Positions 1 through 51,083 of a DNA stretch of 51,083 bases are shown here, one piece after another. Each line of letters opens with the position of its first letter. Position 1 is the first letter of the stretch. Made by a program: the position numbers and the translations under genes. Source of the stretch: a virus (lineage: Duplodnaviria > Heunggongvirae > Uroviricota > Caudoviricetes); the IMG/VR virus record IMGVR_UViG_2541047841_000011. One strand, given 5' to 3'. The notes under the pieces were generated by a model. It saw only the letters and a program-made list of their open reading frames with translations, made no database searches and was not told the DNA's origin.

Positions 1-1005
1 TTAATCCCCCGTGGACACTGCGTGGACACTTACGCCACCTTTCAGCGGATTAAGGGCCACCGCATCCTGCAGGTAATCCGGTGCAAAATGCGCATATGCC
101 ATTGTTTGCTGAATGGTTGCGTGACCAAGAATCTTCTGAAGCGCAATAATGTTTCCTCCGTTCATCACAAAATGGCTGGCGAACGTATGCCGCAGCACAT
201 GTGCAGCCTGGCCTTTTGGTAAATCGGGCTTAACTCTTTTCAGCGCCAGGCAGAATTCCCGGTACTTCACCTCAAACAAGCCGCCTGTTTCTCTGGTTTT
301 GATCGCCTCACAAACTGCCTGCGAAATTGGCACTGTTCTCTTCCGGCCATTTTTGGTTTCAAGAAACGTTACACGGTTATGAACTATCTGTTCACCACGA
401 AGCTTACAAGCTTCACTCCAGCGCGCCCCTGTGCTTAAACACAAAAGCGCAACACGCCAGTAGTCGCCCTCCAGTGTATCGAGCAATAGCGCCACTTCCT
501 TCTGTGACAGGAACGCCATTTCTCGTGGAGATACATAAAGAATAGAAATTCCCCTTACTGGATGTTCTGCATCCCAAAGACCTATTTTTTTCAGCACGGT
601 AAACATTCCGGATAACCGATTCATGTACCTGTTAGCAGATGACGGTTTCAATCCTTCAGCTATCTTTTGAGAACGCCACGCGATAATTTTCAGCTTATCA
701 AGATCCACAGCCTGCATATCAGCGCCAAGCTCATTGATTATGTTGCGCAGTTGTTTTCGGTCTTCTTCCGCCTTACGCCTGTGCTGGCCGTGATACATCC
801 ACCACAACTCAAGCAAATCATTTAGCGTTCGACGATCACGGTAGCCCTGTATATATTCCCGCTTTTCAGCGTTCGCCATGATGTAGCGTTCAGTGGCCAC
901 CGCTACCGATTTTTTGTCAAATACCTTACGCACGCGCTTTCCCTTGCGTCCGTTCGGCCTGATGTCCAGCAAATAACGACCATCTTCGAGCTTCTTAATC
1001 GACAT
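1..1005 (-). CDS. int: Tyrosine integrase, P2 Int-like
   Basis: ORF 1..1020 (TTG at 1018-1020); likely ATG start at 1003-1005 preceded by GGAGGG; C-terminal catalytic box HVLRHTFASHF...GHATIQQTMAYAHF; N-terminus MSIKKLEDGRY resembles P2-type integrases; window starts at its stop codon. Confidence 0.93.
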   Translation of the reverse strand: MSIKKLEDGRYLLDIRPNGRKGKRVRKVFDKKSVAVATERYIMANAEKREYIQGYRDRRTLNDLLELWWMYHGQHRRKAEEDRKQLRNIINELGADMQAVDLDKLKIIAWRSQKIAEGLKPSSANRYMNRLSGMFTVLKKIGLWDAEHPVRGISILYVSPREMAFLSQKEVALLLDTLEGDYWRVALLCLSTGARWSEACKLRGEQIVHNRVTFLETKNGRKRTVPISQAVCEAIKTRETGGLFEVKYREFCLALKRVKPDLPKGQAAHVLRHTFASHFVMNGGNIIALQKILGHATIQQTMAYAHFAPDYLQDAVALNPLKGGVSVHAVSTGD

Positions 1006-1101
1006 TACGAAGCCCTCCAATGAACCGCTCTACAATTTCTCCAGCCTCTTTCCAGCAATAATCAGACCAGACAAAAAGCAGGTCTAACCAGTTTTCTGGC
1101 C

Positions 1102-1422
1102 TCAGCGGGATAATTTTTGGATTGTTTCGGTTGAAACGCGATCTCCCTCCGAATTGCAGGAACCATCAAGAGAGAGAGCCGGAGAAATTTGCCCGACCTC
1201 CGGCATCGTTTCATCTGTTGATAACCAATAAGCATACTTCTTAAATTTAGGGTGTTTCGTAACCTTAAGTAAGGCACCCTCTGTTACTTGCTTCCCCCTC
1301 ACCTCATAGTTAGTTACCGTCCCATAAGGCAGCCCAACACAATCCGCAAACTCCTGGCGGGTCATACCTTCTGCTTCACGAATCAGGCGAAATTTTTCAC
1401 CCATGCTTGACAAAGATGCCAT
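1102..1422 (-). CDS. C: Immunity repressor, P2 C-like HTH protein
   Basis: ORF 1102..1476; probable start ATG 1420-1422 after GGAGGA; HTH segment RQEFADCVGLPYGTVTNYE; upstream of int on same strand and divergent from cox, as in P2. Confidence 0.75.
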   Translation of the reverse strand: MASLSSMGEKFRLIREAEGMTRQEFADCVGLPYGTVTNYEVRGKQVTEGALLKVTKHPKFKKYAYWLSTDETMPEVGQISPALSLDGSCNSEGDRVSTETIQKLSR

Positions 1423-1535
1423 ATCGGGCATATCCTCCATCGCAACATGCCACATCGGGCACAAACATAAAAACACTCAAATAAGCCGATATAAGCCATT
1501 TTGAGCCATTCGAACGAATTAGGGAGATTACCACA
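1423..1535. promoter_or_regulatory. Divergent early promoter/operator region between C and cox
   Basis: 113-bp intergenic gap between divergent repressor and cox; three phased direct repeats ATAAGCCGAT / ATAAGCCATT / TTGAGCCATT at about 1481..1510, candidate repressor operators. Mirror 49549..49661. Confidence 0.4.
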
Positions 1536-1823
1536 ATGAGCGAATCAGAGCTTGGGGGGTTCATTCAGGTAGCACCATATCCACTTGAAGCGGTGCCATA
1601 TCAACTATTCGCCAAGATGATCGGCCGCAAGGAATCCACAGTCAGAACCATGATTGACGCAGCAAAGCTACCGACAATTGACTTTGTGAAACCAGGTTCA
1701 GTAAAGACGCGTGCATCAGAAAACTGGGTATATCTGCCAGCATTTAACGAAGGCATGCGCAAAGCGTTTTTTGAGCAACCGAAAGAACGCCGCGACGCAT
1801 GGTTGTTGTGGCTGGGACTTTAG
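1536..1823 (+). CDS. cox: Cox-like excisionase/transcriptional regulator
   Basis: 95 aa; GGGAG RBS before ATG; IPYQLFAKMIG...WVYLPAFN...WLLWLGL resembles P2 Cox; first gene of rightward early operon. Confidence 0.8.
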   Translation: MSESELGGFIQVAPYPLEAVPYQLFAKMIGRKESTVRTMIDAAKLPTIDFVKPGSVKTRASENWVYLPAFNEGMRKAFFEQPKERRDAWLLWLGL

Positions 1824-2178
1824 TCATAAATGACCAGCCATATCATCAGCGCCATTCTGACCCTTGTTTTTATTGAGATAGGCGTAATAGAGATCTATTT
1901 GTTTCGCAAGTTAACGGACATGAAGAACGCTTTATTGAACTCAGCATTGAATATATCGCCACTTATACCAAAGGACTTTTCCCGGCAGCTATTGGGGCGA
2001 TGTTTATAGCGTTTGTTATCTGGTTTATCGGGTGAGAAACCTGACAACCCACAACTACTGCAATGAGGGTAATTATGTGTGGCATGGACAAATTGGACCT
2101 TATGTTAATTGTAATACTATCAATTAACTTCGGTTACCTCTTAAGCGGCGCAATTCTCATGTGCGGAGGCAAACGAAA

Positions 2179-2286
2179 ATGAACCAGCAGTCCGCAAAAC
2201 GTGAAAACAATGCGATGCGATTTAATCGCAAATATTTTGAGTTCGGCCTCTATGCCGGAATAATTAAATCTGTACAGAGTCTTTAA
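2179..2286 (+). CDS. Small ORF (35 aa), hypothetical
   Basis: ATG at 2179 with strong GGAGG RBS 11 nt upstream; stop TAA 2284-2286 directly abuts ATG of next ORF (TAAcATG); below ORF-track length cutoff. Confidence 0.3.
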   Translation: MNQQSAKRENNAMRFNRKYFEFGLYAGIIKSVQSL

Positions 2287-2287
2287 C

Positions 2288-2629
2288 ATGAAACAGCAAC
2301 GTAATTCACGCTTTCGCAATGGTGCAGAACGCCACGCTAACCGTTTTGCTACCAGTGCATCACGCAGCAACATCCGCTACAGCCTGAGTGATACACACGC
2401 AACGCCGGATGGCTACCCAGTAAAACAAATCGGCGAGCATGCCTGGCTGATTGAGAAAGCTGGAATCGTGATCCACAAATGCCCACGCAATCCGTTTACC
2501 GGAAACCGCATTTTTGCTCTAAGCAGTGGCAACAATCAGTTCGGGCAGGATTTCACATTATACGAAGCACTTCGCACGGTTGATCGTCTGCTTCGCGGGC
2601 AAAGTTTTATTAAACAGGCTGATTTATAA
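2288..2629 (+). CDS. Hypothetical early-operon protein (113 aa)
   Basis: Intact ORF in early operon orientation; no recognisable motif. Confidence 0.5.
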   Translation: MKQQRNSRFRNGAERHANRFATSASRSNIRYSLSDTHATPDGYPVKQIGEHAWLIEKAGIVIHKCPRNPFTGNRIFALSSGNNQFGQDFTLYEALRTVDRLLRGQSFIKQADL

Positions 2630-2639
2630 CAGGTGCTTT

Positions 2640-2927
2640 ATGACCAAAGACCATGCACAAGGTGTATTTATCCGTTTTATTGATTTTCGCGGTGAACTGT
2701 TATTACGTGCATCCGCTATTGACGGAGTAACTCCGGCGGGTAAAAACGGAGCCGACGAAGCCACTTACGTTTATCTGAACGGCACGCGACTGCTTGTGGA
2801 ACTTCCGTACCAGACCGTACGAGAAATCATTAGCGAAGCTGAAAAGGCACGCCAGGTTAATGGCGATGAACCCTATATCGAAATTATTTGTATGGATTCA
2901 GAAGCTGAAATACAGAAAGCAGATTAA
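2640..2927 (+). CDS. Hypothetical early-operon protein (95 aa)
   Basis: Internal ATG of ORF 2526..2927 with AGGTG RBS; tightly packed with neighbours. Confidence 0.5.
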   Translation: MTKDHAQGVFIRFIDFRGELLLRASAIDGVTPAGKNGADEATYVYLNGTRLLVELPYQTVREIISEAEKARQVNGDEPYIEIICMDSEAEIQKAD

Positions 2928-2935
2928 AGGGCGTT

Positions 2936-3181
2936 GTGATGGGCAAAGAATATAAAACTCTCATTAACAAAGCACTTGAGCGTTTTTATTTTCGCTTAAG
3001 TGCATCAGGCGCTCATGCTGAACGTGCGGCCCGTGACTCATTGACCAGAGCAATCCGAAGTCTGTATGACGTGGCTTTTTACGCTGATGATCTGGATGCA
3101 CTTAACGAACTTTCCGAGCTGATCTGTGCCGCAGAGTGCGGGGAACATATTGAACCGTATAAGCTGGGGAATATCGCATGA
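2936..3181 (+). CDS. Hypothetical early-operon protein (81 aa)
   Basis: ORF with GTG/ATG start at 2936/2939; stop overlaps next small ORF start (ATGA). Confidence 0.5.
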   Translation: MMGKEYKTLINKALERFYFRLSASGAHAERAARDSLTRAIRSLYDVAFYADDLDALNELSELICAAECGEHIEPYKLGNIA

Positions 3182-3291
3182 GTATATTTATCTCATGGCT
3201 TGTTCTGATTATTTCGGTGGCCTGCGCTATTGGGATTATGCGAATTATTCATTCAATAAAAAAGATTGAACGCTTTTTCACTGGCGAATAA
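3178..3291 (+). CDS. Small hydrophobic peptide (37 aa), putative single-TM
   Basis: ATG 3178 overlaps upstream stop (ATGA); translation MSIFISWLVLIISVACAIGIMRIIHSIKKIERFFTGE is one hydrophobic helix plus basic tail; below ORF-track cutoff. Confidence 0.3.
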   Translation: MSIFISWLVLIISVACAIGIMRIIHSIKKIERFFTGE

Positions 3292-3376
3292 CAGAGCAAA
3301 TAAAACCACAGATTAAATAAGAAAATGTAAAACAATCCGCATTCGCGGAGGTATTCGCACACGCCAAGGAGGCGTA

Positions 3377-3580
3377 ATGGCAATTAAGCATTTTCCTGTC
3401 GTTCGTTTTACCTCCAGAGGGCGTGAATACGAAGTCGACGAACGCCTGATTACCACAATCGACAAACACCGTTCAGAAAAGGATGCACATCACATCTATC
3501 TCACTGACGGCACTTACTTCTGCGCCACGAATGTGGTGCGGGTGAACCTTATCCGACAGGTACAGGAGTCACGCAGATGA
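3377..3580 (+). CDS. Hypothetical early-operon protein (67 aa)
   Basis: Excellent RBS AAGGAGG 7 nt upstream of ATG; stop overlaps next start. Confidence 0.6.
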   Translation: MAIKHFPVVRFTSRGREYEVDERLITTIDKHRSEKDAHHIYLTDGTYFCATNVVRVNLIRQVQESRR

Positions 3581-3822
3581 CCATTCTGGACTATATCGCC
3601 GCCAATCCGGGGTGTAGCGGTGGAGAAATCGCCGCAGCACTGAATACCCCAACCACAGCCATTAATGCGGAGTTACGCCGACTCTGGCGCAGCGGTTCAG
3701 TCATAAGAAAAGAGCGCAAAACAGGCGGTCGCTTTTCTTACCAGATAAACCCGATGCCGTTCGGGTGCGGCAATCCACTTACCAACATGTTTAACCAGCT
3801 ACTGAAGGAAGCCAGAGCATGA
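3577..3822 (+). CDS. Small winged-helix-like DNA-binding protein (81 aa)
   Basis: ATGA overlap with upstream gene; segment GCSGGEIAAALNTPTTAINAELRRLWRSG is a helix-turn-helix-like pattern. Confidence 0.5.
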   Translation: MTILDYIAANPGCSGGEIAAALNTPTTAINAELRRLWRSGSVIRKERKTGGRFSYQINPMPFGCGNPLTNMFNQLLKEARA

Positions 3823-4118
3823 GCGCCATCAACCACCAGGAATTACGCGAACTGGCGACTGACCTGCAACGAATGGCAACGCCTCAAAAATTACTGGCGT
3901 TTCGCGCAATGCTCTCGCCGTCTGCTGTGCTGGCGCTGCTGGATGAGCTGGAGCACGCCAGAACCACACCTCTCGCCATTCGCCTGACGCTCCGTCATGA
4001 AATCGAGGATTTCTGCGCGACGTTGGAGGCGCCAGGCGAACCGGAAACGCCGGAAGCAATACAGCAAGAGCTGCTGCAACGCATTGACAAGGTTTTTGAT
4101 TTTTTTCTGAACCACTAA
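3819..4118 (+). CDS. Hypothetical early-operon protein (99 aa)
   Basis: ATGA-coupled ORF, acidic helical protein; followed by 320-bp non-coding region. Confidence 0.5.
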   Translation: MSAINHQELRELATDLQRMATPQKLLAFRAMLSPSAVLALLDELEHARTTPLAIRLTLRHEIEDFCATLEAPGEPETPEAIQQELLQRIDKVFDFFLNH

Positions 4119-4440
4119 GAAACCAGAACATGCACACACAAAAAAACCGCTTGCCATGCCGCAATCAGTCAGGTTACATTTCCGCTGCACCTCACAAAAC
4201 GGGTGCCGGGTTTCGCAGCCTGCTGACTACACAAGCGCACAACCGCGCCAGCGTTTTTTTTGTGCGTACTGTATTGCCACGTTTTTTTCGCGTCAGAATT
4301 ATGGCGGGGCGTACGGGGCCGACTTCGGTCGGGCCGGGTTCTTGTGTAGCCGGTACTGCGAACCTCGTACGTCTCGCCACCCACAGTTTCGCAGCTCTGG
4401 ATGGTGAGTTTTCACAACTTACTACACAAGGGGCCACACC
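4119..4440 (+). other. Structured non-coding region (candidate sRNA/regulatory element)
   Basis: 320 bp without credible ORF inside an otherwise tightly packed operon; hairpin GGCCGAC-TTCG-GTCGGGCC at about 4317..4336; motif TACACAAG at about 4229 and 4424 and inverted as CTTGTGTAG at about 4343; direct repeat GTTTCGCAGC at about 4211 and 4387; T8 run at 4253..4260. Mirror 46644..46965. Confidence 0.4.
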
Positions 4441-4671
4441 ATGGCAAACCGCAAACCACACCGCGCTATCGCGGAGCGTCGTCACATCCAGACTGAAATC
4501 AACCGCAGACTTTCCCGCGCATCACGCGTCGCGCAAATCATGCACATCAATATGCTGCATGAGCGCAGCCACGCACTATCAAACATTTATTCCGCCTCTG
4601 TTTTCAGCTATCTGGCGGATGATCTGCACGAGCTTCAACAGCTCATCCAGCAGCAAAACAAACTCCATTAA
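4441..4671 (+). CDS. Hypothetical protein (76 aa), basic
   Basis: ORF directly after the structured non-coding region. Confidence 0.45.
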   Translation: MANRKPHRAIAERRHIQTEINRRLSRASRVAQIMHINMLHERSHALSNIYSASVFSYLADDLHELQQLIQQQNKLH

Positions 4672-4743
4672 CTCCTGTTCCGGGCCTTTCCTGCACCTTG
4701 CGGCGGGAGGCCTTCGCACATCTGTAACAAGAGGATTGCCGCA

Positions 4744-5109
4744 ATGATTCTCGCCAACGACTTTCTTGAATACCTGCTCAACACAGAACGTGATCTTGCC
4801 GCTCGCGTGCGTGATCGTTATGACATGTACCTGAAATCCCTGCCTGTACCGCAGCTCGCTGACGGAAAGATTGTTATTGATGGTCGCTACATGATTGACA
4901 GCCACGAGGGAAATTACAGGCTTTACCGCATTGAAGGTGGCACCCCGTCCGTTATTGGCATTTACCAGCGCCCATCCTCTGCAATCGTCGATGTGATTGC
5001 CGACAGCATCCGCATCACACATCGCCATGCCGACACAGAAGACACCGTGCTGGAAATTCAGCGGCTGGCTACAGTCTGCCGCGACACCCTGAATGGCATG
5101 ACGAAGTAA
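4744..5109 (+). CDS. Hypothetical protein (121 aa)
   Basis: ORF immediately upstream of gpA with AGAGGA RBS-like sequence. Confidence 0.5.
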   Translation: MILANDFLEYLLNTERDLAARVRDRYDMYLKSLPVPQLADGKIVIDGRYMIDSHEGNYRLYRIEGGTPSVIGIYQRPSSAIVDVIADSIRITHRHADTEDTVLEIQRLATVCRDTLNGMTK

Positions 5110-5115
5110 ATCACT

Positions 5116-7938
5116 ATGACGGCAGAGTACATCAGGGGCTGGCAACAACCGCGCCACGCAGTGGGGCGTGAAGGAACGGGGATCCCCGCTCCTGAATCCG
5201 CGCTTTCCTCCTGGCTGGATGCCTACCGGGTAGAGAACGAGCACCGCCAGGAAATGGCTGATGCGGCGTTCTCCGCAACGCCGCTGGGCAACCTGATTAA
5301 TAAAAGCCTGAACGCACAGGAAAAACAGGACAAAACCATCACACTGGCAGGAGATGCCAGAAAACAGGCACGCGGCGCGGTGGATGAAGCCATGGCCTCG
5401 CTGCGCCTGCTGCCGTCCTATCTGCGCGATCCGCTTATTCGCCACCTCTCCTTCCTGCGCAAAAAACAGGAAGCCGATCGTCAGAAAGGCAAAAAGAGCT
5501 GGCAGGCTGAACGCTACGCGCGCGGAAACCTGCGCAAAATATTCGAACGTCTGGATCGCACCGATCACCGCTGGCTGACACAGGGTTATCGCTCCCTTGC
5601 CGGACGCGAACGCCTGGACGATTTGCTTTACCTGCCGCAGCTCAACAAACACCAGATACAGACACTGGCCACCATGACGGCGGCGATGTTCAGCAGCACC
5701 TTCGAAAAACTCTGCGATGGCTTTGGCGCGACCGATGGCGAACTGACCATGGATGTAACGCTGAAGGCGTATCAGATGCTGGCCCGCATGGCGTTACACC
5801 TGCACGCCATGCCTCCACATTATGACGCACTGACAACAGACAAAGACCGGAGGAACGAACCGGACACGGAGCTGCTGCCGGGCGCAATCCTTCGCCTGAC
5901 CTGTGCAGAATGGTGGAAACGCAAACTGTGGCTGTTACGTTGCGAGTGGAGAGAAGAACAACTCCGCGCCGCCTGTCTGGTTTCCAGAAAAACATCGCCC
6001 TATCTGAGCCAGGACGCGTTAAGCGAGTTTCGCGCACAGCGCGAGAAAACACGCGATTTCCTGAAAAGTTTCATGCTGGAAAATGAAGACGGGTTCACGA
6101 TTGATCTCGAGACGGTGTATTACGCGGGAGTAAGTAACCCGGTTCACCGTAAGGCAGAAATGATGGCCACCATGAAGGGGCTGGAACTTCTGGCCGAAGC
6201 CCGTGGCGACAAAGCGGTGTTTCTGACTGTCACCTGCCCGTCAAAATACCACGCCACAACAGAGAACGGTCATCCGAATCCCAAATGGAACGGGGCCACC
6301 ATGCGCGACTCCAGCGATTACCTGGTTAACACGTTTTTTGCGGCGGTCCGCAAAAAACTGAACCGCGACGGTCTTCGCTGGTATGGCATCCGCACGGTGG
6401 AGCCTCACCATGACGGCACCGTGCACTGGCATATGATGGTCTTTGCGCATCCGGAAGAAATCGACAGCATCGTGGCCATCACCCGCGATATTGCCATTCA
6501 GGAAGACCGCCACGAGCTGGGCAATGATATTACTCCGCGCTTTAAGGCGGAGTATGTCGACGGCTCAAAAGGCACACCAACCAGCTATATCGCGACCTAC
6601 ATCGGAAAGAACCTGGACAGCCGCGCCGTGGATGGCATCGACCCGAAAACGGGCAAGCCACGCGTTGACCACGAAACCGGAAAATCAATGGCCGAGAGTG
6701 TGGAGCGCGCCATCGGCTGGGCGCGCCTTCATCGGGTCCGCCAGTTCCAGTTCTTTGGCATCCCCTCCCGTCAGGTGTGGCGTGAACTGCGCCGCCTTGC
6801 CAGCCAGATGGCACGCAACCCGGAAGGCCCGCAACGACTGAAAGATGACGCAATGGATGCGGTACTCGCTGCCGCCGATGCCGGGTGTTTTGCCACCTAC
6901 ATTGAAAAACAGGGCGGCGTACTTGTTCCACGCAAAGACTACCTGATTCGCACCGCCTACGACCTCGCAGATGAGCTGAATGATTACGGCGAACAGAGCG
7001 TACAGATTTACGGGATCTGGTCACCACTCATCGGGGAATCCTCCCGTGTGTGCACGCATCCGGATAACTGGAAACTGGTAAGACGTAAACCGGAAACGGA
7101 AGACAGCGCCCGCGAAAATGGTTTTGACCTTCAGGGCGGCCCTGCCGCCCCTTGGACTCGTGGCAATAACTGTCCCCGTGTACAGGAAACGGACAACAAC
7201 GGGACAGAACAGCCGGAAGAACGGCCAGCACCGTGGCCGCAGCTCCCTGACGGCGTTGAAGTGAACGAATGGATGCGCTCACTGAAACGACACGAACGCC
7301 GGGCGCTGATGCGTTCGCTTCGTGACAAACAGGCAAAAAACAGCAGCGATGAAATGCAGAGCTGGACACAGAGCCGCAAACAGCAGCGGCCTTTGCCTGA
7401 TAACCACGAATTACTCGCTAAAGAATGGCGGGAGTCTGCTGAATCTCTCGGCCTGCATATCGGTGAACAACAGATGCAGCACCTGTTACGGGGCGGCAGT
7501 CTGTACGTTGACGGCAGCATCATTGCACCGCAGGGATTTGAAATTGTACGCAAACCGGATACCCGCCCGGACAGCCGAATCACGCAGCTCTGGCAGCGCC
7601 TGAGCCGTAATCACGGCGTAAGCAGCACGGAGATCCGCCATAACCCGGTCTCCAGCTATCTGGCACAGCTCGGGGCATCAGACCCCGAAGCCGCCGCACG
7701 CCTGGCATCCACACTTCAGCAGGTCCAGAACACCATGAAAACACCCGTTACCGTGCTTTCTGACATGCTGCGCGCCATTCGTGACGCAGAGCACGCACAG
7801 AGAATCAGAGAAACCACTGAACGCGCCCGCCGCAAAGCAAACCTGCTGAGGACTGGCCTGACCAGTGGAAACAAAAAACAGACAGAAACGGGATTCACAA
7901 ATCCCGTAAATGAGCAAAAAACGCGCCGCGATATATGA
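5116..7938 (+). CDS. A: Rolling-circle replication initiator (P2 gpA-like HUH endonuclease), 940 aa
   Basis: HUH motif TVHWHMMVF and paired-tyrosine motif YIATYIGKN (YxxxY) typical of superfamily-I RCR initiators; position matches P2 A; about 300 extra C-terminal residues. Confidence 0.88.
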   Translation: MTAEYIRGWQQPRHAVGREGTGIPAPESALSSWLDAYRVENEHRQEMADAAFSATPLGNLINKSLNAQEKQDKTITLAGDARKQARGAVDEAMASLRLLPSYLRDPLIRHLSFLRKKQEADRQKGKKSWQAERYARGNLRKIFERLDRTDHRWLTQGYRSLAGRERLDDLLYLPQLNKHQIQTLATMTAAMFSSTFEKLCDGFGATDGELTMDVTLKAYQMLARMALHLHAMPPHYDALTTDKDRRNEPDTELLPGAILRLTCAEWWKRKLWLLRCEWREEQLRAACLVSRKTSPYLSQDALSEFRAQREKTRDFLKSFMLENEDGFTIDLETVYYAGVSNPVHRKAEMMATMKGLELLAEARGDKAVFLTVTCPSKYHATTENGHPNPKWNGATMRDSSDYLVNTFFAAVRKKLNRDGLRWYGIRTVEPHHDGTVHWHMMVFAHPEEIDSIVAITRDIAIQEDRHELGNDITPRFKAEYVDGSKGTPTSYIATYIGKNLDSRAVDGIDPKTGKPRVDHETGKSMAESVERAIGWARLHRVRQFQFFGIPSRQVWRELRRLASQMARNPEGPQRLKDDAMDAVLAAADAGCFATYIEKQGGVLVPRKDYLIRTAYDLADELNDYGEQSVQIYGIWSPLIGESSRVCTHPDNWKLVRRKPETEDSARENGFDLQGGPAAPWTRGNNCPRVQETDNNGTEQPEERPAPWPQLPDGVEVNEWMRSLKRHERRALMRSLRDKQAKNSSDEMQSWTQSRKQQRPLPDNHELLAKEWRESAESLGLHIGEQQMQHLLRGGSLYVDGSIIAPQGFEIVRKPDTRPDSRITQLWQRLSRNHGVSSTEIRHNPVSSYLAQLGASDPEAAARLASTLQQVQNTMKTPVTVLSDMLRAIRDAEHAQRIRETTERARRKANLLRTGLTSGNKKQTETGFTNPVNEQKTRRDI

Positions 7939-7983
7939 AGCGCGCACAAAACAGGCGAAAGCGGGATTTAAAAATCCCGTAAA
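7871..7983. repeat. Two 40-bp direct repeats, each with an 18-bp palindrome (parC-like centromere or ori element)
   Basis: Unit 1 at 7871..7910 (inside gpA 3-prime end) and unit 2 at 7944..7983 match at 32/40; each contains CGGGATT(T/C)A(A/C)AAATCCCG; lies directly upstream of the ParM-like gene. Mirror 43101..43213. Confidence 0.5.
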
Positions 7984-8014
7984 CGGTTAATTAACCAACA
8001 TAAGGAAAATCGAC

Positions 8015-8974
8015 ATGAAAATTTGTATCGACGACGGCTCCACCAACATCAAGCTGGCATGGACTGAGAATGGCGAACGCCGCAACGCCATCAGCCCGAA
8101 CAGCTTCAAGTCGGAATGGTCTGCGCCGTTCGGTGGCATGCAGCCCGCGAACTACATGCTTGATGGCGTGCGCTATGGTTTTGATCCGGTCAGCGATCGC
8201 TTTGTCCAGACGACCGACACGCAATACCAGTACAGCGATGTGAATGTAATCGCCATTCATCACGCGCTGGTCAAATCAGGCATCACGCCACAAGAGGTGG
8301 ATGTGGTTGTCACCCTGCCACTGAGCGAGTATTTCGAGACAAACGCACAGCCGGACATGGCCAACATCAACCGCAAAAAAGCGAACGTTATGCGCTCGGT
8401 GGAGTACCAGAACGGCGAAGCATTCACTATCCGTAACGTGCGGGTTATGCCTGAATCCATTCCGGCTGGCTTTAAAGCACTGGCTGACATGAGTCCGTTT
8501 GAATCCCTGCTGATTGTGGATTTAGGCGGAACCACGCTGGATGTGGCAAAGGTTCAAGGGCAACTGGCAGGTATCAGCCAGGTGTTTTGCGATCCACACG
8601 TAGGCGTTTCCCTGATGGCCGATGCCGTACTGTCGGTGATGGCCACTAACGGTATGCGCACCAGTCACCACATCGCCAATACCATTATCGAACATCGCCA
8701 TGATGAAGCCTGGCTGCGCCAGCACATCCACAATGACGCGCATTACGCCAGCCTGATGGCGGTTATTCGTGAAAAGGAAGAAACACTGAAACAACGCGTG
8801 ATCCGCGCGCTGGCGGTTTTTTCGGGTTACGGGCGGGTGATGGTTGTCGGTGGAGGGGCGGAGATTGTGGCACCCGCTATCCGCGAAGTCTGCGGAGTTA
8901 ATGCGACTTTCATCGCGGACGGGGTGCCACAGTTTGCTCTGGTTAATGGGCTGTACGCAATGGACAAGGAGTAA
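8015..8974 (+). CDS. parM: ParM/StbA-like actin-fold ATPase
   Basis: Actin-fold motifs IDDGSTNIK (phosphate 1), VDLGGTTLD (phosphate 2), VGGGAE (adenosine); length 319 aa as for ParM. Confidence 0.78.
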   Translation: MKICIDDGSTNIKLAWTENGERRNAISPNSFKSEWSAPFGGMQPANYMLDGVRYGFDPVSDRFVQTTDTQYQYSDVNVIAIHHALVKSGITPQEVDVVVTLPLSEYFETNAQPDMANINRKKANVMRSVEYQNGEAFTIRNVRVMPESIPAGFKALADMSPFESLLIVDLGGTTLDVAKVQGQLAGISQVFCDPHVGVSLMADAVLSVMATNGMRTSHHIANTIIEHRHDEAWLRQHIHNDAHYASLMAVIREKEETLKQRVIRALAVFSGYGRVMVVGGGAEIVAPAIREVCGVNATFIADGVPQFALVNGLYAMDKE

Positions 8975-8978
8975 ACCA

Positions 8979-9293
8979 ATGACGACACCAACCAGACGGA
9001 TAAGTTTCTATCTGAAGCCCGCCGCCGTCAAGAGTGAACAGGAGGCGTGCAATTACCTCGATAGCCTGCCAGCCTCCGAACGCAGCCGCGCGCAACGCGC
9101 GGCCTTTCTGGCTGGGCTAGCGCTCATAAAGCGCAACCCAGCATTTGCCTACTGGATGGCCGAATGGCCAGAGGACAACCTCCCCTTCAATACCGTTAGC
9201 ATCAAGGAAACATACCAGGATAATCAGCCTAGCGGAGTTGAATGCAATTTTTATAAAATTGCAAAGAATATTCAGACCTTATTCCCAGAATAA
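8979..9293 (+). CDS. parR: ParR-like centromere-binding adaptor
   Basis: Internal ATG of ORF 8844..9293 with AGGAG RBS; RRISFYLKP...ERSRAQRAAFLAGLAL matches the ParR ribbon-helix-helix N-terminus; immediately downstream of the ParM-like gene. Confidence 0.68.
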   Translation: MTTPTRRISFYLKPAAVKSEQEACNYLDSLPASERSRAQRAAFLAGLALIKRNPAFAYWMAEWPEDNLPFNTVSIKETYQDNQPSGVECNFYKIAKNIQTLFPE

Positions 9294-42105: not shown

Positions 42106-42109
42106 TGGT

Positions 42110-43069
42110 TTACTCCTTGTCCATTGCGTACAGCCCATTAACCAGAGCAAACTGTGGCACCCCGTCCGCGATGAAAGTCGCATTAACTCCGCAGACTTCG
42201 CGGATAGCGGGTGCCACAATCTCCGCCCCTCCACCGACAACCATCACCCGCCCGTAACCCGAAAAAACCGCCAGCGCGCGGATCACGCGTTGTTTCAGTG
42301 TTTCTTCCTTTTCACGAATAACCGCCATCAGGCTGGCGTAATGCGCGTCATTGTGGATGTGCTGGCGCAGCCAGGCTTCATCATGGCGATGTTCGATAAT
42401 GGTATTGGCGATGTGGTGACTGGTGCGCATACCGTTAGTGGCCATCACCGACAGTACGGCATCGGCCATCAGGGAAACGCCTACGTGTGGATCGCAAAAC
42501 ACCTGGCTGATACCTGCCAGTTGCCCTTGAACCTTTGCCACATCCAGCGTGGTTCCGCCTAAATCCACAATCAGCAGGGATTCAAACGGACTCATGTCAG
42601 CCAGTGCTTTAAAGCCAGCCGGAATGGATTCAGGCATAACCCGCACGTTACGGATAGTGAATGCTTCGCCGTTCTGGTACTCCACCGAGCGCATAACGTT
42701 CGCTTTTTTGCGGTTGATGTTGGCCATGTCCGGCTGTGCGTTTGTCTCGAAATACTCGCTCAGTGGCAGGGTGACAACCACATCCACCTCTTGTGGCGTG
42801 ATGCCTGATTTGACCAGCGCGTGATGAATGGCGATTACATTCACATCGCTGTACTGGTATTGCGTGTCGGTCGTCTGGACAAAGCGATCGCTGACCGGAT
42901 CAAAACCATAGCGCACGCCATCAAGCATGTAGTTCGCGGGCTGCATGCCACCGAACGGCGCAGACCATTCCGACTTGAAGCTGTTCGGGCTGATGGCGTT
43001 GCGGCGTTCGCCATTCTCAGTCCATGCCAGCTTGATGTTGGTGGAGCCGTCGTCGATACAAATTTTCAT
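42110..43069 (-). CDS. parM: ParM-like actin-fold ATPase, mirror copy
   Basis: Exact inverted copy of 8015..8974. Confidence 0.78.
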   Translation of the reverse strand: MKICIDDGSTNIKLAWTENGERRNAISPNSFKSEWSAPFGGMQPANYMLDGVRYGFDPVSDRFVQTTDTQYQYSDVNVIAIHHALVKSGITPQEVDVVVTLPLSEYFETNAQPDMANINRKKANVMRSVEYQNGEAFTIRNVRVMPESIPAGFKALADMSPFESLLIVDLGGTTLDVAKVQGQLAGISQVFCDPHVGVSLMADAVLSVMATNGMRTSHHIANTIIEHRHDEAWLRQHIHNDAHYASLMAVIREKEETLKQRVIRALAVFSGYGRVMVVGGGAEIVAPAIREVCGVNATFIADGVPQFALVNGLYAMDKE

Positions 43070-43145
43070 GTCGATTTTCCTTATGTTGGTTAATTAACCG
43101 TTTACGGGATTTTTAAATCCCGCTTTCGCCTGTTTTGTGCGCGCT

Positions 43146-45968: not shown

Positions 45969-45974
45969 AGTGAT

Positions 45975-46340
45975 TTACTTCGTCATGCCATTCAGGGTGT
46001 CGCGGCAGACTGTAGCCAGCCGCTGAATTTCCAGCACGGTGTCTTCTGTGTCGGCATGGCGATGTGTGATGCGGATGCTGTCGGCAATCACATCGACGAT
46101 TGCAGAGGATGGGCGCTGGTAAATGCCAATAACGGACGGGGTGCCACCTTCAATGCGGTAAAGCCTGTAATTTCCCTCGTGGCTGTCAATCATGTAGCGA
46201 CCATCAATAACAATCTTTCCGTCAGCGAGCTGCGGTACAGGCAGGGATTTCAGGTACATGTCATAACGATCACGCACGCGAGCGGCAAGATCACGTTCTG
46301 TGTTGAGCAGGTATTCAAGAAAGTCGTTGGCGAGAATCAT
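45975..46340 (-). CDS. Hypothetical protein (121 aa), mirror copy
   Basis: Exact inverted copy of 4744..5109. Confidence 0.5.
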   Translation of the reverse strand: MILANDFLEYLLNTERDLAARVRDRYDMYLKSLPVPQLADGKIVIDGRYMIDSHEGNYRLYRIEGGTPSVIGIYQRPSSAIVDVIADSIRITHRHADTEDTVLEIQRLATVCRDTLNGMTK

Positions 46341-46412
46341 TGCGGCAATCCTCTTGTTACAGATGTGCGAAGGCCTCCCGCCGCAAGGTGCAGGAAAGGC
46401 CCGGAACAGGAG

Positions 46413-46643
46413 TTAATGGAGTTTGTTTTGCTGCTGGATGAGCTGTTGAAGCTCGTGCAGATCATCCGCCAGATAGCTGAAAACAGAGGCGGAATAAATG
46501 TTTGATAGTGCGTGGCTGCGCTCATGCAGCATATTGATGTGCATGATTTGCGCGACGCGTGATGCGCGGGAAAGTCTGCGGTTGATTTCAGTCTGGATGT
46601 GACGACGCTCCGCGATAGCGCGGTGTGGTTTGCGGTTTGCCAT
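46413..46643 (-). CDS. Hypothetical protein (76 aa), mirror copy
   Basis: Exact inverted copy of 4441..4671. Confidence 0.45.
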   Translation of the reverse strand: MANRKPHRAIAERRHIQTEINRRLSRASRVAQIMHINMLHERSHALSNIYSASVFSYLADDLHELQQLIQQQNKLH

Positions 46644-46965
46644 GGTGTGGCCCCTTGTGTAGTAAGTTGTGAAAACTCACCATCCAGAGCTGCGAAACTG
46701 TGGGTGGCGAGACGTACGAGGTTCGCAGTACCGGCTACACAAGAACCCGGCCCGACCGAAGTCGGCCCCGTACGCCCCGCCATAATTCTGACGCGAAAAA
46801 AACGTGGCAATACAGTACGCACAAAAAAAACGCTGGCGCGGTTGTGCGCTTGTGTAGTCAGCAGGCTGCGAAACCCGGCACCCGTTTTGTGAGGTGCAGC
46901 GGAAATGTAACCTGACTGATTGCGGCATGGCAAGCGGTTTTTTTGTGTGTGCATGTTCTGGTTTC

Positions 46966-47265
46966 TTAGTGGTTCAGAAAAAAATCAAAAACCTTGTCAA
47001 TGCGTTGCAGCAGCTCTTGCTGTATTGCTTCCGGCGTTTCCGGTTCGCCTGGCGCCTCCAACGTCGCGCAGAAATCCTCGATTTCATGACGGAGCGTCAG
47101 GCGAATGGCGAGAGGTGTGGTTCTGGCGTGCTCCAGCTCATCCAGCAGCGCCAGCACAGCAGACGGCGAGAGCATTGCGCGAAACGCCAGTAATTTTTGA
47201 GGCGTTGCCATTCGTTGCAGGTCAGTCGCCAGTTCGCGTAATTCCTGGTGGTTGATGGCGCTCAT
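46966..47265 (-). CDS. Hypothetical protein (99 aa), mirror copy
   Basis: Exact inverted copy of 3819..4118. Confidence 0.5.
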   Translation of the reverse strand: MSAINHQELRELATDLQRMATPQKLLAFRAMLSPSAVLALLDELEHARTTPLAIRLTLRHEIEDFCATLEAPGEPETPEAIQQELLQRIDKVFDFFLNH

Positions 47266-47507
47266 GCTCTGGCTTCCTTCAGTAGCTGGTTAAACATGTT
47301 GGTAAGTGGATTGCCGCACCCGAACGGCATCGGGTTTATCTGGTAAGAAAAGCGACCGCCTGTTTTGCGCTCTTTTCTTATGACTGAACCGCTGCGCCAG
47401 AGTCGGCGTAACTCCGCATTAATGGCTGTGGTTGGGGTATTCAGTGCTGCGGCGATTTCTCCACCGCTACACCCCGGATTGGCGGCGATATAGTCCAGAA
47501 TGGTCAT
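47262..47507 (-). CDS. Winged-helix-like protein (81 aa), mirror copy
   Basis: Exact inverted copy of 3577..3822. Confidence 0.5.
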   Translation of the reverse strand: MTILDYIAANPGCSGGEIAAALNTPTTAINAELRRLWRSGSVIRKERKTGGRFSYQINPMPFGCGNPLTNMFNQLLKEARA

Positions 47508-47707
47508 CTGCGTGACTCCTGTACCTGTCGGATAAGGTTCACCCGCACCACATTCGTGGCGCAGAAGTAAGTGCCGTCAGTGAGATAGATGTGATGTGCA
47601 TCCTTTTCTGAACGGTGTTTGTCGATTGTGGTAATCAGGCGTTCGTCGACTTCGTATTCACGCCCTCTGGAGGTAAAACGAACGACAGGAAAATGCTTAA
47701 TTGCCAT
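47504..47707 (-). CDS. Hypothetical protein (67 aa), mirror copy
   Basis: Exact inverted copy of 3377..3580. Confidence 0.6.
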   Translation of the reverse strand: MAIKHFPVVRFTSRGREYEVDERLITTIDKHRSEKDAHHIYLTDGTYFCATNVVRVNLIRQVQESRR

Positions 47708-47902
47708 TACGCCTCCTTGGCGTGTGCGAATACCTCCGCGAATGCGGATTGTTTTACATTTTCTTATTTAATCTGTGGTTTTATTTGCTCTGTTATTCGC
47801 CAGTGAAAAAGCGTTCAATCTTTTTTATTGAATGAATAATTCGCATAATCCCAATAGCGCAGGCCACCGAAATAATCAGAACAAGCCATGAGATAAATAT
47901 AC

Positions 47903-48148
47903 TCATGCGATATTCCCCAGCTTATACGGTTCAATATGTTCCCCGCACTCTGCGGCACAGATCAGCTCGGAAAGTTCGTTAAGTGCATCCAGATCATCAG
48001 CGTAAAAAGCCACGTCATACAGACTTCGGATTGCTCTGGTCAATGAGTCACGGGCCGCACGTTCAGCATGAGCGCCTGATGCACTTAAGCGAAAATAAAA
48101 ACGCTCAAGTGCTTTGTTAATGAGAGTTTTATATTCTTTGCCCATCAC
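47903..48148 (-). CDS. Hypothetical protein (81 aa), mirror copy
   Basis: Exact inverted copy of 2936..3181. Confidence 0.5.
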   Translation of the reverse strand: MMGKEYKTLINKALERFYFRLSASGAHAERAARDSLTRAIRSLYDVAFYADDLDALNELSELICAAECGEHIEPYKLGNIA

Positions 48149-48156
48149 AACGCCCT

Positions 48157-48444
48157 TTAATCTGCTTTCTGTATTTCAGCTTCTGAATCCATACAAATAA
48201 TTTCGATATAGGGTTCATCGCCATTAACCTGGCGTGCCTTTTCAGCTTCGCTAATGATTTCTCGTACGGTCTGGTACGGAAGTTCCACAAGCAGTCGCGT
48301 GCCGTTCAGATAAACGTAAGTGGCTTCGTCGGCTCCGTTTTTACCCGCCGGAGTTACTCCGTCAATAGCGGATGCACGTAATAACAGTTCACCGCGAAAA
48401 TCAATAAAACGGATAAATACACCTTGTGCATGGTCTTTGGTCAT
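48157..48444 (-). CDS. Hypothetical protein (95 aa), mirror copy
   Basis: Exact inverted copy of 2640..2927. Confidence 0.5.
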   Translation of the reverse strand: MTKDHAQGVFIRFIDFRGELLLRASAIDGVTPAGKNGADEATYVYLNGTRLLVELPYQTVREIISEAEKARQVNGDEPYIEIICMDSEAEIQKAD

Positions 48445-48454
48445 AAAGCACCTG

Positions 48455-48796
48455 TTATAAATCAGCCTGTTTAATAAAACTTTGCCCGCGAAGCAGACGA
48501 TCAACCGTGCGAAGTGCTTCGTATAATGTGAAATCCTGCCCGAACTGATTGTTGCCACTGCTTAGAGCAAAAATGCGGTTTCCGGTAAACGGATTGCGTG
48601 GGCATTTGTGGATCACGATTCCAGCTTTCTCAATCAGCCAGGCATGCTCGCCGATTTGTTTTACTGGGTAGCCATCCGGCGTTGCGTGTGTATCACTCAG
48701 GCTGTAGCGGATGTTGCTGCGTGATGCACTGGTAGCAAAACGGTTAGCGTGGCGTTCTGCACCATTGCGAAAGCGTGAATTACGTTGCTGTTTCAT
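48455..48796 (-). CDS. Hypothetical protein (113 aa), mirror copy
   Basis: Exact inverted copy of 2288..2629. Confidence 0.5.
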   Translation of the reverse strand: MKQQRNSRFRNGAERHANRFATSASRSNIRYSLSDTHATPDGYPVKQIGEHAWLIEKAGIVIHKCPRNPFTGNRIFALSSGNNQFGQDFTLYEALRTVDRLLRGQSFIKQADL

Positions 48797-49260
48797 GTTA
48801 AAGACTCTGTACAGATTTAATTATTCCGGCATAGAGGCCGAACTCAAAATATTTGCGATTAAATCGCATCGCATTGTTTTCACGTTTTGCGGACTGCTGG
48901 TTCATTTTCGTTTGCCTCCGCACATGAGAATTGCGCCGCTTAAGAGGTAACCGAAGTTAATTGATAGTATTACAATTAACATAAGGTCCAATTTGTCCAT
49001 GCCACACATAATTACCCTCATTGCAGTAGTTGTGGGTTGTCAGGTTTCTCACCCGATAAACCAGATAACAAACGCTATAAACATCGCCCCAATAGCTGCC
49101 GGGAAAAGTCCTTTGGTATAAGTGGCGATATATTCAATGCTGAGTTCAATAAAGCGTTCTTCATGTCCGTTAACTTGCGAAACAAATAGATCTCTATTAC
49201 GCCTATCTCAATAAAAACAAGGGTCAGAATGGCGCTGATGATATGGCTGGTCATTTATGA

Positions 49261-49548
49261 CTAAAGTCCCAGCCACAACAACCATGCGTCGCGGCGTTCT
49301 TTCGGTTGCTCAAAAAACGCTTTGCGCATGCCTTCGTTAAATGCTGGCAGATATACCCAGTTTTCTGATGCACGCGTCTTTACTGAACCTGGTTTCACAA
49401 AGTCAATTGTCGGTAGCTTTGCTGCGTCAATCATGGTTCTGACTGTGGATTCCTTGCGGCCGATCATCTTGGCGAATAGTTGATATGGCACCGCTTCAAG
49501 TGGATATGGTGCTACCTGAATGAACCCCCCAAGCTCTGATTCGCTCAT
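49261..49548 (-). CDS. cox: Cox-like protein, mirror copy
   Basis: Exact inverted copy of 1536..1823. Confidence 0.8.
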   Translation of the reverse strand: MSESELGGFIQVAPYPLEAVPYQLFAKMIGRKESTVRTMIDAAKLPTIDFVKPGSVKTRASENWVYLPAFNEGMRKAFFEQPKERRDAWLLWLGL

Positions 49549-49661
49549 TGTGGTAATCTCCCTAATTCGTTCGAATGGCTCAAAATGGCTTATATCGGCT
49601 TATTTGAGTGTTTTTATGTTTGTGCCCGATGTGGCATGTTGCGATGGAGGATATGCCCGAT

Positions 49662-49982
49662 ATGGCATCTTTGTCAAGCATGGGTGAAAAATTTCGCCTG
49701 ATTCGTGAAGCAGAAGGTATGACCCGCCAGGAGTTTGCGGATTGTGTTGGGCTGCCTTATGGGACGGTAACTAACTATGAGGTGAGGGGGAAGCAAGTAA
49801 CAGAGGGTGCCTTACTTAAGGTTACGAAACACCCTAAATTTAAGAAGTATGCTTATTGGTTATCAACAGATGAAACGATGCCGGAGGTCGGGCAAATTTC
49901 TCCGGCTCTCTCTCTTGATGGTTCCTGCAATTCGGAGGGAGATCGCGTTTCAACCGAAACAATCCAAAAATTATCCCGCTGA
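49662..49982 (+). CDS. C: C-like repressor, mirror copy
   Basis: Exact inverted copy of 1102..1422. Confidence 0.75.
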   Translation: MASLSSMGEKFRLIREAEGMTRQEFADCVGLPYGTVTNYEVRGKQVTEGALLKVTKHPKFKKYAYWLSTDETMPEVGQISPALSLDGSCNSEGDRVSTETIQKLSR

Positions 49983-50078
49983 GGCCAGAAAACTGGTTAG
50001 ACCTGCTTTTTGTCTGGTCTGATTATTGCTGGAAAGAGGCTGGAGAAATTGTAGAGCGGTTCATTGGAGGGCTTCGTA

Positions 50079-51083
50079 ATGTCGATTAAGAAGCTCGAAG
50101 ATGGTCGTTATTTGCTGGACATCAGGCCGAACGGACGCAAGGGAAAGCGCGTGCGTAAGGTATTTGACAAAAAATCGGTAGCGGTGGCCACTGAACGCTA
50201 CATCATGGCGAACGCTGAAAAGCGGGAATATATACAGGGCTACCGTGATCGTCGAACGCTAAATGATTTGCTTGAGTTGTGGTGGATGTATCACGGCCAG
50301 CACAGGCGTAAGGCGGAAGAAGACCGAAAACAACTGCGCAACATAATCAATGAGCTTGGCGCTGATATGCAGGCTGTGGATCTTGATAAGCTGAAAATTA
50401 TCGCGTGGCGTTCTCAAAAGATAGCTGAAGGATTGAAACCGTCATCTGCTAACAGGTACATGAATCGGTTATCCGGAATGTTTACCGTGCTGAAAAAAAT
50501 AGGTCTTTGGGATGCAGAACATCCAGTAAGGGGAATTTCTATTCTTTATGTATCTCCACGAGAAATGGCGTTCCTGTCACAGAAGGAAGTGGCGCTATTG
50601 CTCGATACACTGGAGGGCGACTACTGGCGTGTTGCGCTTTTGTGTTTAAGCACAGGGGCGCGCTGGAGTGAAGCTTGTAAGCTTCGTGGTGAACAGATAG
50701 TTCATAACCGTGTAACGTTTCTTGAAACCAAAAATGGCCGGAAGAGAACAGTGCCAATTTCGCAGGCAGTTTGTGAGGCGATCAAAACCAGAGAAACAGG
50801 CGGCTTGTTTGAGGTGAAGTACCGGGAATTCTGCCTGGCGCTGAAAAGAGTTAAGCCCGATTTACCAAAAGGCCAGGCTGCACATGTGCTGCGGCATACG
50901 TTCGCCAGCCATTTTGTGATGAACGGAGGAAACATTATTGCGCTTCAGAAGATTCTTGGTCACGCAACCATTCAGCAAACAATGGCATATGCGCATTTTG
51001 CACCGGATTACCTGCAGGATGCGGTGGCCCTTAATCCGCTGAAAGGTGGCGTAAGTGTCCACGCAGTGTCCACGGGGGATTAA
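50079..51083 (+). CDS. int: Tyrosine integrase, mirror copy
   Basis: Exact inverted copy of 1..1005; window ends at its stop codon. Confidence 0.93.
   Translation: MSIKKLEDGRYLLDIRPNGRKGKRVRKVFDKKSVAVATERYIMANAEKREYIQGYRDRRTLNDLLELWWMYHGQHRRKAEEDRKQLRNIINELGADMQAVDLDKLKIIAWRSQKIAEGLKPSSANRYMNRLSGMFTVLKKIGLWDAEHPVRGISILYVSPREMAFLSQKEVALLLDTLEGDYWRVALLCLSTGARWSEACKLRGEQIVHNRVTFLETKNGRKRTVPISQAVCEAIKTRETGGLFEVKYREFCLALKRVKPDLPKGQAAHVLRHTFASHFVMNGGNIIALQKILGHATIQQTMAYAHFAPDYLQDAVALNPLKGGVSVHAVSTGD

Follow-up and report, generated by a model that had tools for sequence, protein, structure and literature searches.

The window, meaning here the whole stretch of DNA that was analysed (51,083 nt), carries the left part of a P2-like prophage twice, once on each strand, on both sides of an invertible tail-fibre segment. 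Gene names were taken from the RefSeq annotation of relatives (the AH21F008 prophage) and from Pfam families. The main features are the following.

1..23896, + strand: left arm, the left two thirds of a P2-like prophage
1..1020, - strand: integrase, mirrored at 50064-51083 (+); Pfam Int_N and Phage_integrase
5116..7938, + strand: replication protein gpA, mirrored at 43146-45968 (-); Phage_GPA, E 3e-131
22614..24848, + strand: tail fibre H in state (+), Hc + Hv1, 744 aa; Pfam Phage_tail_fib and Phage_fiber_2
23878..23903, + strand: left crossover site, TTATCGAATACC-TC-GGTTTACAGGAA; the natural Hc-side site, 24 of 26 bases identical to Mu gix, same in AH21F008
23897..27187, + strand: asymmetric core with Hv1, G, G' and Hv2', which make up the body of the invertible tail-fibre segment; homologue of the G segment of phage Mu
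24851..25384, + strand: tail-fibre assembly protein G, 177 aa, like Mu U'; Caudo_TAP, E 2.7e-36
25413..25940, - strand: tail-fibre assembly protein G', 175 aa, like Mu U; Caudo_TAP, E 1.2e-36
25942..28470, - strand: tail fibre H in state (-), Hc (from the mirrored arm) + Hv2, 842 aa; annotated in NR1430
27181..27206, - strand: right crossover site, + strand TTCCTGCAAACC-GA-GGTATTCGATAA; a hybrid of the natural right inner half and the reverse complement of the Hc-side outer half
27188..51083, - strand: right arm, exact reverse-complement copy of the left arm

A preliminary description had presented the entire window as a 51-kb palindrome with two identical 23.9-kb arms around a 3.3-kb core, and had proposed a base-by-base alignment of one arm to the reverse complement of the other as a check. 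Comparison of the full 51,083 nt with their own reverse complement bore this out, with exact arms of 23,896 nt and 0 mismatches between them. All the 2,277 mismatches of the comparison fall in 23897-27187 and the window contains no N. The outermost mismatches, at 23897 and 27187, delimit an asymmetric core of 3,291 nt between the arms. At 23897 an A stands against a G, in the inner half-site and 6 nt inside the TC core dinucleotide, so that the first arm difference (23897/27187) does lie within the 26-bp crossover sites, as had been described. The mirrored recurrence of the arm open reading frames was likewise found by comparison of these frames, all those of the left arm being repeated in the right arm with int and gpA as examples. 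A perfect inverted repeat of 23.9 kb is impossible by chance.

Both ends of the window coincide exactly with the int stop codon, while in natural genomes pdxB follows after an intergenic stretch of about 200 nt. This suggests that the window may have been cut out of a longer contig at a gene boundary. An att core as the cause of these ends was not supported, since the 369 nt beyond int and the ogr-distal stretch that was compared share no direct repeat of at least 12 nt.

Each arm holds the P2-like early region (int, C, cox, gpA), followed by ParM/partition and cargo genes, the head genes (portal Q, terminase P, O, N, M, L), X, lysis genes, R, S, the baseplate genes V, W, J and I and the constant part of the tail fibre H, with G lying in the core. 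This gene set from int to H and its order are those of P2-like (Peduoviridae) prophages with invertible segments such as the one of EPEC E2348/69 (PMC4272514). Unlike these prophages, the window is devoid of everything to the right of the segment. There were zero blastn or tblastn matches in the window to the invertase, gpU, the tape measure, E, the tube, the sheath, D and ogr, so that of a complete P2-like prophage the sheath FI, tube FII, E/E', T, U, D and ogr were not found. In the same way, neither blastn nor tblastn detected a serine invertase with Resolvase and HTH_7 domains beside the right site. In each full-length natural context read, the invertase and then the tail genes through ogr lie to the right of the segment; compared with canonical P2, these natural relatives have an invertase behind the fibre genes and the block from sheath to gpU on the opposite strand. 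The invertase of the natural copies is Gin-like, with 81% identity to Mu Gin, and is recognized by Pfam Resolvase (E 6e-50) and by PDB 4m6f (E 8e-100). The recombinational enhancer of such systems usually lies in the 5' part of the invertase gene, and this part too is outside the window.

Based on its two gix-like sites, two alternative tips and two chaperone genes, the core is an invertible tail-fibre segment of the phage Mu type. It holds the alternative C-termini of the fibre with their cognate assembly proteins in opposite orientation, that is Hv1 and G on the + strand and G' and Hv2 on the - strand. At the amino-acid level, Hv1 is 96.5% identical to Mu S'v, G 97.2% to U' and G' 89.7% to U, while Hv2 is divergent and largely unrelated to Mu Sv. 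The layout of the natural copies is also that of Mu, with a constant fibre part, a site, two variable ends with chaperones in opposite orientation, a second site and the invertase. The segment nevertheless differs from its Mu counterpart in that it resides in a P2-like prophage and is joined to an H constant region of the P2 type and, in the window, in that the mirrored arm stands in place of the invertase. Exactly two 26-bp crossover sites were found in the window, where 0 are expected by chance; they are in inverted orientation, agree with Mu gix in 24 of 26 bases and have the same TC/GA core. The Gin system of Mu belongs to the Din family (Gin, Cin, Hin, Pin). When up to 3 mismatches were allowed, no gix-like site besides these two was detected in the window or in the natural prophage.

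The host element is a very common P2-like prophage of E. coli integrated beside pdxB, present in complete genomes at 99.96-99.97% identity and in both flip states. The left arm shares 99.97% identity with the prophage that lies next to pdxB in E. coli AH21F008. That prophage is in state (+) and matches window 16942-27210 at 99.96% before diverging into the invertase gene. NR1430, in state (-), matches window 23874-36300 at 99.97%. Both orientations exist in nature, state (+) in AH21F008 and loci L102-L109 and state (-) in NR1430, L003-L007 and L100. The assemblies contain the two states at similar frequency, as the exact 842-aa H protein of state (-) occurs in 291 collection blocks versus 342 for the 744-aa protein of state (+), and the exact gpA protein in 890. 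For each of these three look-ups, the 24 blocks with the longest contigs showed no mirrored context; those of the 744-aa fibre were normal, as were those of the 842-aa fibre, with the invertase and tail genes downstream. A peptide scan of IMG/VR returned 80 loci (best identity 98%), none of which was mirrored, and no allele specific to the window was found.

An older inverted duplication of the left part of the prophage, stably inherited and fixed in some E. coli lineage, is conceivable insofar as E. coli can maintain palindromes with long spacers. Against it stand the 0 differences between the arms in 23,896 nt and the absence of the structure from the clean complete genomes and from 96 related loci, 0 of which had an inverted self-match of at least 1 kb. 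As int lies next to pdxB in natural genomes, the host flanks would also have to be mirrored, and all tail-shaft genes and ogr would have to be lost. This explanation is close to refuted.

The natural invertase-side site reads ...GA-GGTTTTAGATAA, unlike the right site of the window, which departs from this natural half-site at 27198, 27201 and 27207. The hybrid junction of the window is instead present in NR1430 (L001) and in the metagenome contig L100, and the exact flipped-junction pattern was found in 2 normally organised contigs of JGI/ENA metagenomes and in none of the GTDB species representatives. The right site thus reads as the junction of the flipped state and not as an invertase-side site. 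A collapse of the assembly at the inverted repeats themselves was considered and rejected, since the natural left and right repeats agree without interruption over 18 nt at most, and over no more than 10 nt across the crossover core, less than the k-mers in common use. With so little shared sequence, DNA in the flipped state would be required rather than repeat collapse, and a flipped-state hybrid at the right site implies that the sequenced DNA would have to have held both orientations.

All substrings of the window up to 3,300 nt are present in normally organised loci. New substrings appear only at about 3,313 nt or more, when they begin no later than 23886 and extend at least to 27198, and this smallest novel linkage exceeds a short-read insert. 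The window is state (+) joined to the reverse complement of state (-) with an overlap of about 3.3 kb. In parallel, large draft contigs of the prophage were found to end at the equivalents of window positions 23908, 27197 and 27176, which are the crossover sites.

Taken together, it is very probable that the palindrome is an assembly fold-back at the invertible segment and not a molecule. The sequenced E. coli would have contained one ordinary copy of the P2-like prophage next to pdxB, with a segment S (in the order gixL, Hv1, G, G', Hv2', gixR) flipped by the adjacent Gin-like serine invertase. An active invertase would give both orientations in the DNA preparation and hence four junctions: state (+) would contribute Hc|Hv1 and Hv2'|inv, and state (-) Hc|Hv2 and Hv1'|inv. 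Once the strands are merged in an assembly graph, both ends of S would have Hc as well as the invertase side as neighbours. The assembler may have entered S from Hc by the Hc|Hv1 junction and left it by the reverse complement of Hc|Hv2, to go through the same 23.9 kb backwards. Such a path would make the arms identical by construction and would omit the third of the prophage from the invertase to ogr. We infer from the sequence that this particular sample contained both states and that this was the path taken by the assembler. Arms that agree base for base, pivot junctions that are both legitimate in normal genome states and the normality of everything shorter than the pivot are what a fold-back predicts. 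The preliminary description had favoured a fold-back pivoting on the invertible segment, and this part is retained; its passage through the right inverted repeat is replaced by re-entry at the Hc|Hv2 junction of the flipped state, read in reverse complement.

Published observations are in line with this reading. Clonal E. coli cultures hold both orientations of P2-like tail-fibre segments, as in EPEC E2348/69 (PMC4272514), and this coexistence is the precondition of a fold-back. Wholly palindromic SPAdes contigs, 81 of them in M. bovis assemblies, were judged by the authors to be assembly errors (PMC9455707). Like the window, an entire contig forms one reverse-complement palindrome in which the mirrored genes are identical; unlike there, the pivot is identifiable here, as the switching segment gives each of its ends two legitimate neighbours. 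This general report was the only one that a literature search on fold-back contigs at invertible segments turned up. Counting against a fold-back, most assemblers break at such a branch, which makes the outcome uncommon.

A chimera made at the library or read level could be another source of the palindrome, through snap-back during multiple-displacement amplification, a missed SMRTbell adapter or a nanopore template-complement fold-back read propagated by the assembler. Such chimeras do yield perfectly palindromic sequences, in agreement with the perfectly identical arms. Their fold points should nevertheless be random with little or no spacer, whereas the pivot is here an intact 3.3-kb invertible segment bounded by both crossover sites and its right junction is the exact recombinant site of natural flipped genomes. 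A chimera of this kind is therefore highly improbable.

The assembly fold-back has also to be weighed against a genuine inverted dimer, in which a Gin-like enzyme joins gixL of one copy to gixR of a second copy. The partners could be sister chromosomes in the wake of a replication fork, or a pair of phage circles, and the products would be Hc-S-rc(Hc) and rc(inv)-S-inv, in a head-to-head structure comparable to that produced by FLP-driven flipping in the yeast 2-micron plasmid. Worked out on paper, this exchange yields the structure of the window with its natural left site and hybrid right site, and the absence of arm divergence suits a very recent event. The invertase exchange between copies predicts a sequence identical to that of the artefact, hybrid site included, and the earlier caveat that sequence alone is compatible with a real head-to-head structure holds. 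On the other hand, wild-type enzymes of the Gin/Hin family need two inverted sites and a Fis-bound enhancer on one supercoiled molecule and strongly disfavour exchange between molecules; a literature search on intermolecular Gin recombination provided nothing directly usable. In addition, an inverted chromosome dimer cannot segregate and should be rare in culture rather than the consensus, and the invertase and its cis enhancer are missing from the window.

One deposited record could be read as a recurrence of a real structure and thus against the fold-back. Among 2,803 complete genomes with related loci, a mirrored arrangement was found in one only, E. coli O111:H21 strain 15A (NZ_CP077477.1), where a segment of the same kind forms the centre of a mirrored, related P2-like prophage (95% identical). 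The arms, 17,495 nt long, are 100.000% identical and the Hc outer flank is present at both sites. The record was deposited as a complete circular chromosome and, unlike the window, also contains a normal copy of the prophage, a second mirror and a novel junction between a uvrC fragment and mid-gpA, present twice. Its first base lies 5 nt inside gixR, and direct and mirrored copies add about 58 kb of redundancy. The second mirror runs across the record origin and has as its centre a 300-nt spacer in the invertase gene instead of a crossover site, which argues against the dimer. These oddities together point to unresolved contig ends in a record that is visibly mis-assembled. As independent proof of a real palindrome the record was rejected, on account of its start inside gixR, the origin mirror in the invertase gene and the redundancy of about 58 kb. 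A genuine dimer is very unlikely. That the window is a real head-to-head molecule from a Gin-type exchange between sister copies or replicating phage circles, which would give an inverted dimer of the replicon with the prophage, and that strain 15A is a second sighting, is likewise very unlikely; if it were true, tail-fibre invertases would occasionally escape their topological filter in vivo and make giant palindromes.

The 51-kb palindrome is thus most likely not a biological feature, and the fold-back reading matters mainly for quality control. Switching invertible segments offer the assembler two legitimate exits per end, which makes fully palindromic contigs possible. Such a contig can be taken for a 51-kb "virus" that has perfect inverted terminal repeats and twice the genes but no tail module, or be confused with a genome that truly ends in inverted repeats, and it inflates statistics of genome size, completeness and gene count. 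The pattern is also found in a RefSeq "complete" chromosome, that of strain 15A. A simple screen would ask whether a contig equals its own reverse complement except for a short core between recombinase sites. For biology little is at stake, as the Mu-G-type invertible tail-fibre segment is already well known and the prophage that carries it is very common.

When the window was compared with its own reverse complement, positions 1-23896 and 27188-51083 were found to be perfect reverse complements (0 mismatches, no N), and all 2,277 differing positions lay inside a core of 3,291 nt (23897-27187). This agrees exactly with the preliminary description, which had reported identical arms around an asymmetric core. 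Its observation that ORFs recur on the opposite strand was also borne out: the ORF list of the whole window mirrors across both arms, with int and gpA at the coordinates it had given.

1-1020 (-) and 50064-51083 (+): int, mirrored in the ORF list
5116-7938 (+) and 43146-45968 (-): gpA, mirrored in the ORF list

The stop codon of int forms the exact start (1) and end (51083) of the window, and in natural genomes an intergenic stretch of about 200 nt separates it from pdxB. This suggests trimming at a gene boundary out of a longer contig, for instance by a provirus caller using the integrase as edge; the longer parent contig was presumably mirrored as well.

The core and its edges carry four genes, whose names are backed by Pfam, and exactly 2 Gin/Cin-type 26-bp sites bound the invertible segment, against 0 expected by chance.

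22614-24848 (+): full-length tail-fibre gene H, 744 aa
24851-25384 (+): fibre-assembly gene G
25413-25940 (-): second assembly gene G'
25942-28470 (-): second full-length fibre gene, 842 aa
23878-23903: left crossover site (gixL), TTATCGAATACC-TC-GGTTTACAGGAA
27181-27206: right crossover site (gixR), as read on the + strand TTCCTGCAAACC-GA-GGTATTCGATAA

The first 423 codons of the 842-aa fibre gene lie inside the mirrored arm. The constant fibre part (Hc) also contains three tandem 132-nt repeats of 67-88% identity (23123-23518, mirrored at 27600-27995), which correspond to the Phage_fiber_2 repeats.

The prophage was found in its natural organization in both states. The chromosome of AH21F008, in which Hc is joined to Hv1 (state (+)), shows 8 differences in total from window positions 1-27210, and its order is pdxB, int ... 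Hc, site, Hv1, G, G', Hv2' (orphan), site and a 199-aa recombinase, followed by gpU, tape measure, E, tube, sheath, D and ogr. NR1430 represents the flipped state (-), in which Hc is joined to Hv2; its 842-aa fibre gene is the minus-strand gene of the window, and 4 differences separate it from window positions 23874-36300. The recombinase, a Gin-type serine invertase, carries the Pfam domains Resolvase and HTH_7 and matches the Gin structures 4m6f and 3uj3 with an E value of 8e-100. The prophage is very common according to exact-protein look-ups, which returned 890 collection blocks for gpA, 342 for the 744-aa fibre and 291 for the 842-aa fibre. The invertase and tail genes lie to the right of the segment in every full-length context read from these look-ups; in the window, no trace of the right-hand genes, from invertase to ogr, was detected at the DNA and protein level.

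In natural copies, the block from sheath through tube, E and tape measure to gpU is on the strand opposite to H/G and D/ogr (L002 10320-17788, AH21F008; also NR1430 and the related loci L003-L006 and L102-L107), whereas canonical P2 has these genes on the same strand as H and G. No gix-like sites were found flanking this block. The gpD protein has 369 aa in some natural copies and is truncated to 266 aa in others. Moreover, in GCA_964043755.1 the invertase gene is interrupted by an IS4-family transposase (L006 15035-16684); a 100-aa remnant is left, and the tail-fibre segment is probably fixed in its 842-aa state as a result.

The right crossover site reveals how the window is composed. The natural invertase-side half-site is GGTTTTAGATAA, whereas the window carries there GGTATTCGATAA, the reverse complement of the Hc-side half-site, with differences at 27198, 27201 and 27207 and complete divergence past 27210. 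The right site is therefore a recombinant hybrid of the flipped state, made of the inner-right half, the core and the Hc outer half, as it exists in NR1430 and in the metagenome contig L100. It follows that the window consists of state (+) as far as 27210, continued by state (-) in reverse complement starting at 23874, with the whole segment as overlap. From this reading of the site, the flipped junction must have been present in the sequenced DNA. A formal test found every window substring of up to 3,300 nt in some normally organized locus; novelty was confined to substrings at least about 3,313 nt long that start no later than 23886 and extend to 27198 or further. Thus, the palindrome rests on one linkage longer than a short-read insert.

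Inverted-repeat collapse was ruled out as origin: between the natural left and right repeats, the longest run of identical bases is 18, and across the core it is only 10. A chimera at the read level is very improbable, as such chimeras fold at random points and have no spacer; it would leave unexplained why the invertible segment at the pivot is intact and has the correct recombinant junction. A genuine inverted dimer, in which the invertase joins gixL of one copy to gixR of another, predicts exactly the window, hybrid site included, and sequence alone therefore does not separate it from a fold-back. Nevertheless, such a dimer is quite improbable, given that Gin/Hin enzymes are known to be topologically selective, that an inverted chromosome dimer is non-viable and that clean examples are absent among closed genomes.

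For the fold-back, that is, an assembler passing through the segment and returning along the same arm in reverse, we infer a path through both junctions as the proposed mechanism. An active invertase would keep both segment orientations in any culture, which is consistent with the near 1:1 split of states among public assemblies; for P2-like prophages, both orientations have been documented in clonal E. coli (PMC4272514). Each segment end would then have two legitimate neighbours in a strand-merged assembly graph, Hc and the invertase side, and most assemblers stop at such a point. The ends of three draft contigs, each about 450 kb long, are at window-equivalent positions 23908, 27197 and 27176, which correspond to the crossover sites. 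Another assembler could leave the segment at its Hv2 end, enter the Hc|Hv2 junction in reverse complement and go back down the same 23.9 kb, a return path on which the arms would come out identical and the prophage would lose its right third. Contigs of this kind, palindromic throughout, have been documented as an error of short-read assembly, with 81 SPAdes contigs as the reported case (PMC9455707). In addition, the ENA food metagenome contig NODE_1570 (3,150 nt) is a related invertible segment, 90% identical to the Hv1-G part of the window, that ends just past the crossover sites, a further sign of assemblers isolating or breaking at the invertible segment. On balance, the palindrome is best not counted as a real feature.

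An inverted self-match of at least 1 kb was present in 0 of 96 related loci from IMG/VR, NCBI drafts and metagenomes. An old, fixed duplication, which is absent elsewhere and would have to account for zero divergence between the arms, has next to no probability. A 12-kb core-centred query had matches in 2,803 complete E. coli genomes; more than 80% of the query was covered at one place only, in E. coli O111:H21 strain 15A (NZ_CP077477.1). In this RefSeq 'complete' record (positions 5160000-5207197 and 1-62000), a related P2-like prophage is present at leuZ/yecA as a normal copy, and about 58 kb of further copies, direct as well as mirrored, come in addition. The mirror arms around its invertible segment extend over 17,495 nt with 100.000% identity, and a second mirror of 12,198 nt with 1 gap crosses the record origin, its 300-nt spacer lying inside the invertase gene. 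The uvrC-fragment/mid-gpA junction occurs twice, and the record starts 5 nt inside gixR. The record is probably mis-assembled, and we take it as a case in which the same problem of assembly has entered a deposited genome, not as proof of a real structure. The extra unit (A'..Hc-S-inv..ogr-tRNAs-pgsA-uvrC', where S is the invertible segment and inv the invertase side) measures about 30.5 kb and may be an aberrantly excised circle, since this is close to P2 size.

A ParM/StbA-like actin-type segregation protein is encoded directly after gpA (8015-8974, +), followed by its Plasmid_stab_B partner, an ORF of about 104 aa; both are mirrored in the right arm. With this pair, an integrated P2-like element carries partition genes of a plasmid type. 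Between the partition genes and the portal gene, two cargo genes (9377-10756, -; mirrored at 40328-41707, +) encode a DUF4760 protein of 165 aa and a 280-aa protein with a weak PADLOC match to Csx27 (E 1e-5). In P2, old/tin occupy this position, and the locus may be anti-phage cargo.

The last 221 nt of Hv2 (25942-26162) share 94% nucleotide identity with the tail-fibre gene of the Mu-like Shigella phage SfMu, and its middle part (26588-27153) is 82% identical to the fibre genes of Peduovirus P22H4 and Escherichia phage 9W. The fibre tip is a mosaic common to Mu-like and P2-like phages. The likeness to phage Mu extends to the crossover site, which matches Mu gix at 24 of 26 positions, to Hv1 and G (96.5% and 97.2% aa identity with Mu S'v and U') and to G' (89.7% identity with Mu U), whereas Hv2 is largely different from its Mu counterpart. 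The recombinase of the natural copies is 81% identical to Mu Gin, and the only reason why the window has no invertase is that the contig omits this part. The system works like the G segment of Mu and the Gin family, to which it belongs by the features tested, and its host element is a P2-like prophage.
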